DNA of 64,000 nucleotides from an uncultured Ruminococcus sp. (GTDB lineage Bacteria; Bacillota; Clostridia; Oscillospirales; Acutalibacteraceae), in assembly GCA_905233755.1 (NCBI GenBank), contig CAJODM010000010.1, forward strand, positions 18,823 through 82,822. The letters are read 5' to 3'. The position numbers and the translations under genes were made by a program. Positions within the stretch are counted from its first letter, which is position 1; each line of letters begins with the position of its first letter. This document shows, in pieces, positions 58,123 through 61,210 of the stretch. The notes under the pieces are model-generated. The model was not told the DNA's origin. It saw only the letters and a list, made by a program, of their open reading frames with translations, and did not search any database.

Positions 58123-58464
58123 ATGCCGGGTACTAGAAAACTGGGCAGAGCGACCGACGCGCGTCTGGCGATGCTGCGCGCTCTCGTCACGTTCTTGTTC
58201 GAGAACGGCAAGATCGAAACTACCCTCTCACGTGCGAAGGAGGTCGCCTCCCTCTCTGAGAAGATGATCACGATCGCGAAGAAGGATACCCTCGCGAGCA
58301 AGCGTCAGCTCATGGCGTTCATCACCAAGGAGGACGTCGCGACCAAGCTCATCAAGGAGATCGCGCCGAAGTACGCCGACCGCAACGGCGGCTACACCCG
58401 CATCACGAAGATCGGTCCCCGCCGCGGCGACGCCGCCGAAATGGCGATTATCGAACTGATCTGA
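58123..58464 (+). CDS. rplQ: 50S ribosomal protein L17
   Basis: [19 protein letters not shown]. Confidence 0.98.
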
Positions 58465-58478
58465 GAATCTGAGAATAT

Positions 58479-58509
58479 GCCCATCCGTCCGCGGGTGGGC
58501 TATTTTTTT
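58479..58509 (+). terminator. rplQ terminator
   Basis: GCCCATCC/GGGTGGGC followed by T7. Confidence 0.9.
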
Positions 58510-58697
58510 AGTGAATAGTGAATGGTGAAGAGTGAAGAGTTGCGGGAAACCCCTTCGGGGCTTTGGATTTCTAGAATAGGAATACCTATGTCCGGGTCAT
58601 CCTGAATGGAGCGTAGCGACATGAAGGATCTGAGCGCACAGGTGTTGCTATCCACTGTACCGCCGCAGGGATAACGCCGTCGGTGTACTAAGAATCT

Positions 58698-59438
58698 TCA
58701 CTTCACTCTGTTTTCGATTTGCGGTCGTCCTGCTGTGAGGATGCTTTTTGCAAGCTTGACGAACGCGGCGGTCTCGTCCGGTGTACAGTATCGCGGGCTG
58801 CCGCGCTTCTGATGCTCGTCTGTTCCGCTCGGGTCATCCCATACCCCCGATGGCTCCTCTTGATCCATCCACAGCTCATCGACCGATACATGCGTCTGTG
58901 TCGGGGAGGAATATTCTTTAGGTTCTTCTCCTTTTGAAGAAGCTAAAGAATATTCCGATATGATATCTTCATATTCTTTATCTTCTTCTTCTTCTTTTTC
59001 TTTTTCTTTTTCTTGGTTGTTGGGGGTTGTTTTGGATTCAAGGGGGGTTGTTTTGGATTCAAGGGGGGTTGTTTTGGATTCAAGGGGGGTTGTTTTGGAT
59101 TCAAGGGGGGTTGTTTTAGATTCAACGGGGGTTGTTTTTCGGTTGTTTTTGGAGGATGTTTTGGCGTTCTGATTCCCTTTGGACGCGCCGCCCTTTTTCC
59201 CGTTCTCAACGGATGTGAAGTAGCGCAGATAGTCGCGGTCGATCTGAGCCGACAGCAGGTCGAACATCACAGTGACGATCGTGTCGCTGTCATCGAGGAC
59301 GACCCCGTCGGTCACATAGGCGAACAGCGCCTTGTACAGCTGCCCTGCCTGCGCGTCTGTCAGCCGGCTGATCGCGCGGTGGGAATCAAGATAGCAGATG
59401 AAGTAGGGCGGTCGCTTGTCGGATGTGAGGTGGTTCAT
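58698..59438 (-). CDS. Orphan phage replisome-organiser-like protein (DUF6291-like N-terminus) with ESKTTPL repeats
   Basis: LTDAQAGQLYKALFAY...IDRD..RY...ENGKKGG pattern; strong AAAGGAG RBS before ATG 59438. Confidence 0.7.
   Translation of the reverse strand: MNHLTSDKRPPYFICYLDSHRAISRLTDAQAGQLYKALFAYVTDGVVLDDSDTIVTVMFDLLSAQIDRDYLRYFTSVENGKKGGASKGNQNAKTSSKNNRKTTPVESKTTPLESKTTPLESKTTPLESKTTPLESKTTPNNQEKEKEKEEEEDKEYEDIISEYSLASSKGEEPKEYSSPTQTHVSVDELWMDQEEPSGVWDDPSGTDEHQKRGSPRYCTPDETAAFVKLAKSILTAGRPQIENRVK
59022..59138. repeat. 21-bp tandem repeat, five copies plus a partial, inside the CDS
   Basis: GGGGGTTGTTTTGGATTCAAG, four identical copies and one with two changes. Confidence 0.95.
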
Positions 59439-59475
59439 AGTTAATTCTCCTTTCACCTATGGCGCAAAAAGAGAA

Positions 59476-59501
59476 AAAGTTGCATACTATTATGCAACTT
59501 T
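59476..59501. promoter_or_regulatory. Perfect 11-4-11 palindrome upstream of orphan gene
   Basis: AAAGTTGCATA-CTAT-TATGCAACTTT. Confidence 0.55.
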
Positions 59502-59628
59502 CGGAAAAATGTTTGAAGTTTCTAATCTTCATTCTTCTCTCGTCACTATACTTTCACCATTCAAAACCCAATCGGGTGCGGGTGTCCCGCCCACAACCTC
59601 TTCATTCTTCAATCTTCACTCTTCACTG

Positions 59629-59772
59629 CGGACGTTTCCTCGGCACCGTAGGGACGGTGACCACACCGTCCGCCCACACGGACGTTTCCTCGGCACTGTA
59701 GGGACGGTGACCACACCGTCCGCCCACACGGACGTTTCCTCGGCACTGTAGGGACGGTGACCACACCGTCCG
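59629..59772. repeat. 50-bp tandem repeat x2.9, each with a GTAG-type REP hairpin
   Basis: Units start at 59629, 59679, 59729; GTAG-GGACGGTG-ACCA-CACCGTCC. Confidence 0.9.
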
Positions 59773-59838
59773 AATATCAATCCAAAAATCCGCAGGATTT
59801 TCCCACAACTCTTCACTCTTCACCATTCACTATTCACT

Positions 59839-59872
59839 AAAAAGAAGGAGCTGCCGCGACAGCGACAGCTCC
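59839..59872 (-). terminator. eno terminator
   Basis: Minus strand GGAGCTGTCGC/GCGGCAGCTCC followed by TTCTTTTT. Confidence 0.88.
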
Positions 59873-59899
59873 GGGATAGTGAATTGTCAGACCGATCGG

Positions 59900-61210
<1,311 letters not shown>

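Follow-up and report, generated by a model that had tools for sequence, protein, structure and literature searches.

Why a gene whose relatives belong to phage replication modules should stand alone among housekeeping genes, and whether it could still act there, is the question raised by one locus of an uncultured Ruminococcus sp. The stretch of DNA analysed (the window, 64,000 nucleotides, C10:18823-82822) comes from a genome of 1.67 Mb with 58% G+C, in 41 contigs and 99.8% complete, and the gene in question is the open reading frame (ORF) of 741 bp at 58698..59438 on the minus strand. Its product of 246 aa, P0001, is made up of a DUF6291 N-domain, a repeat linker, an acidic tract, a disordered region and a C-terminal amphipathic helix. 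We read the ORF as a phage-responsive orphan initiator and origin cassette, which would be switched on together with a regulon of phage-like genes that carry the same promoter-leader module (P in what follows), and judge from the sequence that this has a probability of about 0.5. The function would be new to DUF6291, and a candidate origin-binding initiator with the origin inside its own gene is the role that the comparisons set out below support.

An origin-like site within the gene

Three elements, all on the minus strand, follow one another within the ORF downstream of the part encoding the N-domain. At 59022..59138 lies a direct repeat array with the unit AAAACAACCCCCCTTGAATCC on the coding strand, for which Tandem Repeats Finder (TRF) gives a period of 21 bp, 5.6 copies, 97% matches and a score of 220; read in the frame of the ORF the array is (ESKTTPL)n, and 16 nt of the 21-mer form a core conserved in three gene-less relic arrays elsewhere in the genome, the remaining 5 nt being variable. 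Next comes a purine- and A+T-rich tract (58966..59021; 89% of it purine and 75% A+T, in a genome of 58% G+C), in which 34 nt of the coding strand (58981-59014) are all A or G and constitute the sole purine or pyrimidine run of at least 30 nt in the 1.67-Mb genome. A preliminary description of this DNA had pointed to 21-bp repeats encoding ESKTTPL and to a long A-rich purine run after them, and both are borne out. The start of the tract, AACAACCAAGAAAAAGAAG, is conserved at the DNA level in the relics and in the nearest relative of the gene outside the species (locus L004).

The third element was overlooked in that description, and is an inverted repeat at 58908..58956 with 21-nt arms, 20/21 complementary, around a 7-nt spacer. 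As RNA it would form a hairpin of -25.1 kcal/mol (z -7.7), and equivalent hairpins of differing sequence are present in L004, L053, L054 and L055 and in one of the relics (on contig C20). For the five gene hairpins and the relic z ranges from -4.2 to -8.5, and for the five hairpins none of 200 shuffles (0/200) folds as well. Compensatory double changes, seen at 8 of the 18 consensus pairs of the alignment, indicate that the hairpin is kept by compensatory change in the five genes and the one relic. The window gene hence has the layout of an iteron origin, with at least three helically phased direct repeats beside an easily melted tract, and also, in anatomy only, the layout of the lambda O type, in which iterons and an A+T-rich tract lie inside the initiator gene.

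Across the family, tandem repeats were surveyed with TRF in 38 DUF6291 genes, with 1,053 long host ORFs (1.36 Mb) as the control. A/C-rich tandem repeats often stand directly after the N-domain, and in 6 of the 38 genes at least 3.5 copies of a 10/11-bp unit do so. The 10/11-bp arrays include AAAACAACCC (x5.7) in the helicase-linked L035, AAAACCCAAAC (x10.9) in L004 and AAAACCCCTAA (x4) in L030, with further 10/11-bp arrays in L051, L034 and L038. Periods of 19-22 bp are found in the window gene, L028, L007 and L043, those of the 29-33-bp class (29 and 33) also occur, and two further genes (L045 and L041) have periods of 9 and 15 bp. Among the control ORFs there is no non-triplet repeat with a period of at least 7 and at least three copies, when five heptamer arrays belonging to a genome-wide family are excluded; a rough hypergeometric estimate for 6/38 against this control is P ~1e-9. 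Repeat periodicity in the homologues is thus not random, a point on which the preliminary description had staked its iteron-like array, and periods of 10-11 bp recur after the N-domain.

Peptide repeats do not account for periods of 10-11 bp. The word AAACAAC is present in all three frames, and the linkers of the family are built of KTT, KQP and NNL/NNP because a 10/11-bp unit, AAAACAACC, is read in three frames. A second, purine- or A-rich tract comes after the array in most of the array-bearing genes, in solo genes and in those borne on mobile genetic elements (MGEs) alike. These features indicate that the repeats act at the level of DNA, as a helically phased site. About half of the DUF6291 ORFs of the genus (L024-L052) are 95-170 aa long and end just after GKKGG, where the non-triplet repeats begin; since slippage by 10/11 bp would shift the frame, the arrays could make the C-terminal part switchable or loss-prone.

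The relics, likewise overlooked in the preliminary description, are non-coding arrays at C2:111551-111798, C11:33473-33626 and C20:18791-19051. Each has a slightly degenerate P, a stub of 70-95 nt, 4-7 units of the 21-mer and the start of the purine tract, in that order, and the C20 relic retains the hairpin as well. The 16-nt core of the resident gene, AAAACAACCCCCCTTG, is kept in all three, while the other 5 nt are locus-specific, each array having been homogenised to its own 5-nt variant. Stop codons interrupt the ESKTTPL frame in the three relics, which share a TAA for GAA after 'NNQ'. One precedes purA, another precedes ctsR, and one lies between rluD and rplS. The relics before purA and ctsR are co-oriented with these genes, and purA has what reads as a TATAAT-like box of its own past the relic; the C2 relic faces the 3' end of rluD and has no gene downstream. 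By analogy with oriR of phage SPP1 (PMC6316719) these copies may be extra binding arrays, or else they may be decayed cassettes.

A promoter-leader module shared with phage-like genes

Immediately upstream of the ORF, at 59439..59517 on the minus strand, lies P, a further feature overlooked in the preliminary description. It comprises a sigma-70-like promoter, a palindrome with a 12-bp stem, a T-run and a strong Shine-Dalgarno (SD) sequence, AAAGGAG, 8 nt 5' of the ATG at 59438. A promoter scan gives TTCAAA-17-CATAAT with the -10 element within the palindrome, the core of which is GTTGCATA-N4-TATGCAAC at 59479-59498. The 12-bp stem reads GAAAGTTGCATA-N4-TATGCAACTTTT here, and GAAAAGTTGCATA in most of the other copies. 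The order of parts is A/T-rich DNA, palindrome, T-run, an SD of the form TA(A/G)GTG(A/G)A(A/G)GG(A/G)G, and a start codon some 36-40 nt past the palindrome.

Perfect copies of P in the same genome head the small-terminase operon (C18:27217), a lysin gene (C18:14178) and a tail-fibre gene (C38:1640), and on this evidence a cis module is common to the window gene and to phage-like genes of the genome in which it lies. The palindrome is found in 29 of 81 genomes of the genus, at 1-10 copies each, with 0 matches for a reversed-pattern control; the genes behind it encode tail fibres, small terminases, XhlA-like holins and, DUF6291 included, replisome organisers of three kinds. In IMG/VR only 4 exact matches to the palindrome were found, and one of these is in a bona fide viral contig of 45 kb (L057:3181-3204), between two tail-fibre-like genes. 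DUF6291 was considered as the factor that binds the P palindrome and was ruled out as its reader, because P is also present in genomes that have no DUF6291 gene (G099, and G170 with 10 copies).

The phage-like genes of this genome form a compact cluster of 13 kb (C18:14178-27236), with small and large terminase, portal, protease, capsid, baseplate-like genes and lysin, and a separate block of tail fibre, XhlA-like protein and M23 peptidase (C38:1640-6676); P heads the transcription units of both. Beside these blocks no integrase, repressor or replication genes were seen, and they could be a defective prophage or an element resembling a gene transfer agent (GTA) or tailocin.

The DUF6291 protein and its family

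The N-terminal domain of P0001 (aa 12-87, encoded at 59178..59405, minus strand) matches the whole of the Pfam DUF6291 profile (PF19808, positions 1-79) with 67.3 bits against a gathering cut-off of 27.2 and an E-value of 1.4e-18, so that what had been called DUF6291-like is a member of the family. It had also been remarked that the C-terminus shows no DnaB/DnaD domain, and Pfam agrees, giving no match at E<=1 to DnaD, DnaB_2, Phg_2220_C or Phage_rep_O anywhere in P0001. A search of NCBIfam with P0001 returned nothing, a profile search of PDB sequences returned spurious matches only, and the PHROG matches are all of unknown function. The linker is predicted to be disordered, and the disordered tail ends in a confidently predicted helix, PDETAAFVKLAKSILTAG (aa 220-236, encoded at 58731..58781, minus strand).

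For the N-domain an AlphaFold2 (AF2) model has a predicted local distance difference test (pLDDT) value of 87 and a predicted template modelling score (pTM) of 0.73, with helices at H17-24, H28-44 and H53-81. Searched against BFVD, this predicted three-helix model finds, at a template modelling (TM) score of ~0.7, phage proteins that bear the names DUF6291, 'DnaD domain protein' and 'replisome organizer'. Kinship with winged-helix initiators is unsupported, because the model has no beta-wing and finds no fold match in the PDB, and the candidates entertained here (a winged-helix, DnaD-N or lambda O fold) are not claimable, the PDB searches having given no match at E<1. Of the phage-type initiator of the preliminary description, then, family membership, gene neighbourhoods, DNA anatomy and the BFVD matches speak in favour, and fold kinship to lambda O or to winged-helix initiators is the part that did not stand.

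The family itself is large. An exhaustive HMMER search with the N-domain gave 1,395 clusters (at 50% identity) at E<=1e-3, and DUF6291 was matched in all of 149 family representatives (149/149). Most full-length members have an N-domain of ~85 aa, the motif 'GKKGGAPKGNxNA', a low-complexity linker, an acidic or (NV/DK/EK)n tract and a variable C-terminus; among the 149, Phg_2220_C was found in five, DnaB_2 in one and PriCT_2 in one. We found no mention of DUF6291 in the literature.

Gene neighbourhoods are more telling. In Flavobacterium phage Muminvirus the DUF6291 gene, gp39, lies between the genes for SSB (the protein that binds single-stranded DNA) and primase/helicase and overlaps the latter. 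Within the genus a DnaB-type helicase gene is directly 3' of the DUF6291 gene at L035 and L044, and an IstB/DnaC-like loader gene at L034; on another contig the gene for P0010 (DUF6291) comes next after a CI-type repressor gene. The slot directly 5' of a loader or helicase is thus held by L034, L035, L044 and Muminvirus gp39, but not by the window gene. A survey of the contexts of homologues, which the preliminary description had proposed, places family members in replication modules 5' of helicase or loader and solo copies among core genes. It is therefore a supported reading of these neighbourhoods that the family occupies the initiator slot of phage and MGE replication modules, in Clostridia and in Bacteroidota.

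The locus and the solitary copies

The window gene is the sole ORF between rplQ (58123-58464, plus strand) and eno (59900-61195, minus strand), and its neighbours (rpoA, rplQ, eno, tspO, tdk and adenine deaminase) include no phage genes; Pfam labels at the same locus of a sister strain agree with a housekeeping neighbourhood. The gene had been described as an orphan with no phage gene or helicase loader nearby, and this holds. It is single-copy in the genome and intact in at least four assemblies. Over the 1.9 kb compared with a strain of 99.8-100% identity, the sole structural difference is in the number of array copies, 2.6 there vs 5.6 in the window gene. Nothing resembling the gene set of a satellite of the phage-inducible chromosomal island (PICI) or Staphylococcus aureus pathogenicity island (SaPI) type was seen, that is integrase, regulator and rep-ori with packaging-hijack genes, as there is one lone 741-bp gene between housekeeping genes. 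An Rfam scan of 58300-60000 gave only sub-threshold chance matches to hairpins.

Outside the species the nearest relative is P0006 (L004), which is intact and in the same position, convergent with rplQ. Between the two loci the L17 proteins are 97% identical and the DUF6291 proteins 34% over their full length and ~49% in the N-domain; the array is of another type in L004 (11-mers), while P and the start of the purine tract are ~90% identical to those of the window, and the SD, purine tract, hairpin and C-terminal helix are all retained along with P. Three further proteins, P0009, P0012 and P0037, share with these two an 'NNQE-acidic-EY..SFSS' tract and, at the corresponding site, a hairpin. 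Four of the five subfamily proteins terminate in a comparable segment able to form a helix: the helix of P0001 and P0006 can be aligned with the C-terminal segment of P0009 and of P0012, and only poorly with that of P0037, whose gene stands between rpmB and alaS with nothing but housekeeping genes around it. Pattern scans for the solo subfamily in IMG/VR, JGI metagenomes and GTDB genome contigs found no relatives.

Solo and element-borne copies were compared over 32 DUF6291 loci of the genus and family. A P-like palindrome is upstream in 16 of the 32, and 14 of these 16 have at least one neighbour with a homologue in the present genome (core genes); of the 16 loci without P, 9 have no neighbour of that kind at all. 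The neighbours tallied include DnaB helicases, a DnaC-like loader, integrases/resolvases, repressors, MraZ/MraW, TrmK, ROK and pseudouridine synthase. These counts indicate that P-driven solo DUF6291 cassettes have repeatedly come to stand among core genes, the sites differing from species to species.

Repeats that flank the gene

Much of the DNA around the ORF consists of dispersed repeats. Directly behind the rplQ terminator, at 58505..58573 (plus strand), is an array of GTGAAGA-type heptamers with a small hairpin, and another heptamer array with a small hairpin is directly behind the eno terminator at 59779..59843 (minus strand). With the terminators they make up the left and right arms of an apparent inverted repeat (58490-58569 and 59779-59858), 80 nt long, 83% complementary and sharing an identical 34-mer. 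Each arm is nothing other than the rplQ or eno terminator followed by its heptamer array and small hairpin, and more than 40 genome sites carry arrays of this kind (GTGAAGA/GTGAATA heptamers, then GAGTTG(C/T)GGGAAA and a small hairpin), often directly after terminators and in several cases at contig ends. Further heptamer arrays of the genome-wide family occupy 59526-59627, and 59629-59772 holds a 50-bp x2.9 array of hairpins resembling repetitive extragenic palindromic (REP) elements, also of a genome-wide family; its hairpin, GGGACGGTGACCACACCGTCC, recurs at about 50 genome sites in arrays of period 29, 34 or 50 bp. Solo DUF6291 genes of other species (L054, L055) are likewise flanked by heptamer arrays, with sequences of their own (ACTAAGA, TAGTTGG).

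On the 3' side a dispersed repeat of ~130 nt, X (58580..58713; at least 8 genome copies at 70-86% identity), adjoins the ORF, whose last 5 codons and stop it provides; X is absent from this place in the sister species (L004). Truncation of the ORF by X was considered and rejected, since only the last few codons are concerned and P0006 ends at the equivalent place. A 1.3-kb cassette with terminal inverted repeats was likewise rejected, the arms being genome-wide heptamer arrays behind terminators. Because arms, hairpin array and repeat X all belong to dispersed families, the locus is not read as transposon-like; element-specific terminal inverted repeats, with a recombinase or a target duplication, as expected of an insertion sequence (IS) or a miniature inverted-repeat transposable element (MITE), were not found at the locus, where no recombinase is present and for which there was no empty site to compare.

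A proposed mode of action and its known counterparts

Family membership, the anatomy of the gene, its DNA-level repeats, the neighbourhoods and the shared module P are established by comparison of sequences, and from them we infer binding, melting and either replication or interference. The gene-internal cis site would consist of phased direct repeats (21 bp, two turns of the helix), an A+T- and purine-rich unwinding tract and a hairpin palindrome. The three-helix N-domain may bind along one helix face to the AAAACAACCCCCCTTG cores and oligomerise, upon which the adjacent purine tract would melt, and the C-terminal helix might then dock a helicase or loader provided in trans while the P regulon is active. 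What follows could be helper-dependent local replication, or competition with the initiator and loader of a related phage, and the three gene-less arrays could serve as extra binding arrays in the manner of SPP1 oriR.

The closest precedent in layout is lambda, where the middle of gene O, in the linker-coding part after the DNA-binding N-domain, contains ori-lambda (iterons and then an A+T-rich tract) (PMC7466680). The window gene is like it in having phased repeats followed by an A+T-rich tract in the linker-coding part of the gene itself, and in that iteron number varies among related phages and alleles have arrays of different types, with greater conservation in other parts. It is unlike it in that there is no similarity of sequence or fold (a Phage_rep_O winged-helix N-domain was not found in P0001, with no Pfam match at E<=1 and no PDB fold match at E<1), in that the repeats are A/C-rich 21-mers without internal dyads, and in being chromosomal and solitary, under a phage-type promoter-leader module and without a gene for a P-type loader. 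Gene 38 of SPP1 contains oriL, and oriR, another origin located elsewhere, has repeats and an A+T tract without a gene (PMC6316719). As an origin-binding protein of a Firmicute phage, with repeats and an A+T-rich unwinding element in its own gene (PMC6316719), gp38 offers a second likeness; its loader and DnaB-type helicase genes lie 3' of the initiator gene, as at L034, L035 and L044, and the gene-less oriR parallels the three relic arrays. However, no homology was detected, the window gene lacks equivalents of gp39 and gp40, and the extra arrays here are dispersed over a bacterial chromosome.

With the DnaD-like organisers (those with DUF4373 or Phage_rep_org_N N-domains) the family shares Phg_2220_C or DnaB_2 C-domains in some of its members and names among the BFVD matches, and P modules head other types of organiser too; P0001, unlike these, ends in a disordered tail and a single helix and has no DnaD-like domain. 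Interference by an origin decoy is how the lactococcal Per acts against phages. To our knowledge no natural chromosomal origin decoy of the kind considered here has been shown. In the 'inhibition phenotype' of lambda, plasmid-borne oop together with iterons of the lambda origin is inhibitory to lambdoid phages using the lambda replication module (PMC3349717), and as cloned origin repeats block the cognate phage in that case the present arrays could do likewise, the difference being that the known cases are plasmid-borne laboratory constructs.

Competing explanations

A number of points weigh against an initiator and origin cassette. No helicase or loader gene is next to the window gene (the neighbours are rplQ, rpoA, eno, tspO and tdk), and P0001 has no DnaD-like C-domain, DnaB_2 or Phg_2220_C being present in 6 of the 149 representatives. 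The modelled N-domain is three helices without a beta-wing, the fold search of the PDB with the full-length and N-domain models gave no match at E<1, and there is no literature report of DNA binding or replication initiation by any DUF6291 protein. The 21-bp period is in frame (7 codons), KTTP-type peptides recur in distant homologues (the linker of P0004), and the array may be a tolerated expansion in a disordered linker, because its copy number varies between near-identical strains. Many solo DUF6291 ORFs of the genus are N-domain-only stubs of 95-170 aa, which fits decay. Module P, for its part, may consist of a promoter and an operator, or it may be a stem-loop leader or stabiliser at the 5' end, or an attenuator resembling a terminator.

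Such points feed the chief rival, that the locus is the inert leftover of a decaying phage or MGE replication module, its repeats being slippage in a disordered linker and without present function, which we regard as unlikely if well worth keeping in mind. Since about half of the ORFs of the genus are N-domain-only stubs many copies are indeed decaying, three stop-ridden array copies lie in the same genome, the number of array copies drifts from strain to strain, a partner helicase or loader is missing, and a dispersed repeat overlaps the 3' end of the ORF. Yet an inert remnant fits poorly with an ORF intact in at least four assemblies, with a diverged L004 counterpart that is intact and has kept P, SD, purine tract, hairpin and C-terminal helix, with an N-domain that is far above the Pfam cut-off and confidently modelled, and with compensatory changes that keep the hairpin; nor does slippage alone explain family-wide 10/11-bp periods in coding DNA. 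It is very unlikely, in our estimate, that the protein is a DNA-binding regulator or architectural protein, whose N-domain would bind the four arrays to regulate or structure loci without replication. The four arrays do have a common 16-nt core and each is behind a P module, two relics are co-oriented upstream of purA and ctsR, and P0001 has no replisome-recruiting domain; but the family context is one of replication modules, purA has its own TATAAT-like box after the relic, the C2 relic faces the rluD 3' end with no downstream gene, and an array with an A+T-rich tract and a palindrome is an origin layout (PMC7466680, PMC6316719).

That ESKTTPL is selected as a peptide (a spacer, or a modification or interaction motif), with the DNA periodicity incidental, is scarcely to be expected: although 21 bp is 7 codons, KTTP recurs in the linker of the distant homologue P0004 and the linker is predicted disordered, the core persists in three non-coding relics with stop codons, relatives have 10- and 11-bp periods with three frames read, the peptides KTT, KQP and NNL/P are three frames of one DNA word, and a purine tract comes after the array in most array-bearing genes. 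It is similarly improbable that the locus is a mobile, IS/MITE-like cassette of 1.3 kb with terminal inverted repeats, inserted between the rplQ and eno terminators. The 80-nt arms, 83% complementary with an identical 34-mer, suggest it, as do P-driven solo DUF6291 genes at many different core-genome sites in the genus and heptamer arrays that also flank the L054 and L055 copies. However the arms belong to genome-wide families of more than 40 sites and include both host terminators, and no transposase or recombinase is at the locus.

Implications

If the reading as an initiator and origin cassette is extended from this locus to the genus, chromosomal initiator-origin cassettes and mini-origins wired to phage P would be kept as such, and, once an element of the P regulon, phage or phage-like, is activated, their firing would locally over-replicate the core genes around them for headful packaging, boosting lateral or GTA-like transfer, or would soak up the phage loader as a defence; this extension we hold to be speculative and distinctly doubtful. 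Were it true, non-triplet phased repeats read in three frames (KTT, KQP, NNL) would be a general signature of gene-internal origins.

For the family the finding means that a large group of proteins without a literature, DUF6291, gains a concrete and testable role, that of an origin-binding initiator with its origin inside its own gene, together with a simple origin signature, namely 10-11-bp tandem repeats in coding DNA followed by a purine tract. For the genus of gut Clostridia concerned, a conserved palindromic module P links scattered phage-derived genes. Should the cassettes be active, they would bear on the replication of phage-like elements and satellites that have almost no genes of their own, on origin-decoy defence against phages, and on local amplification of the chromosome before transduction.

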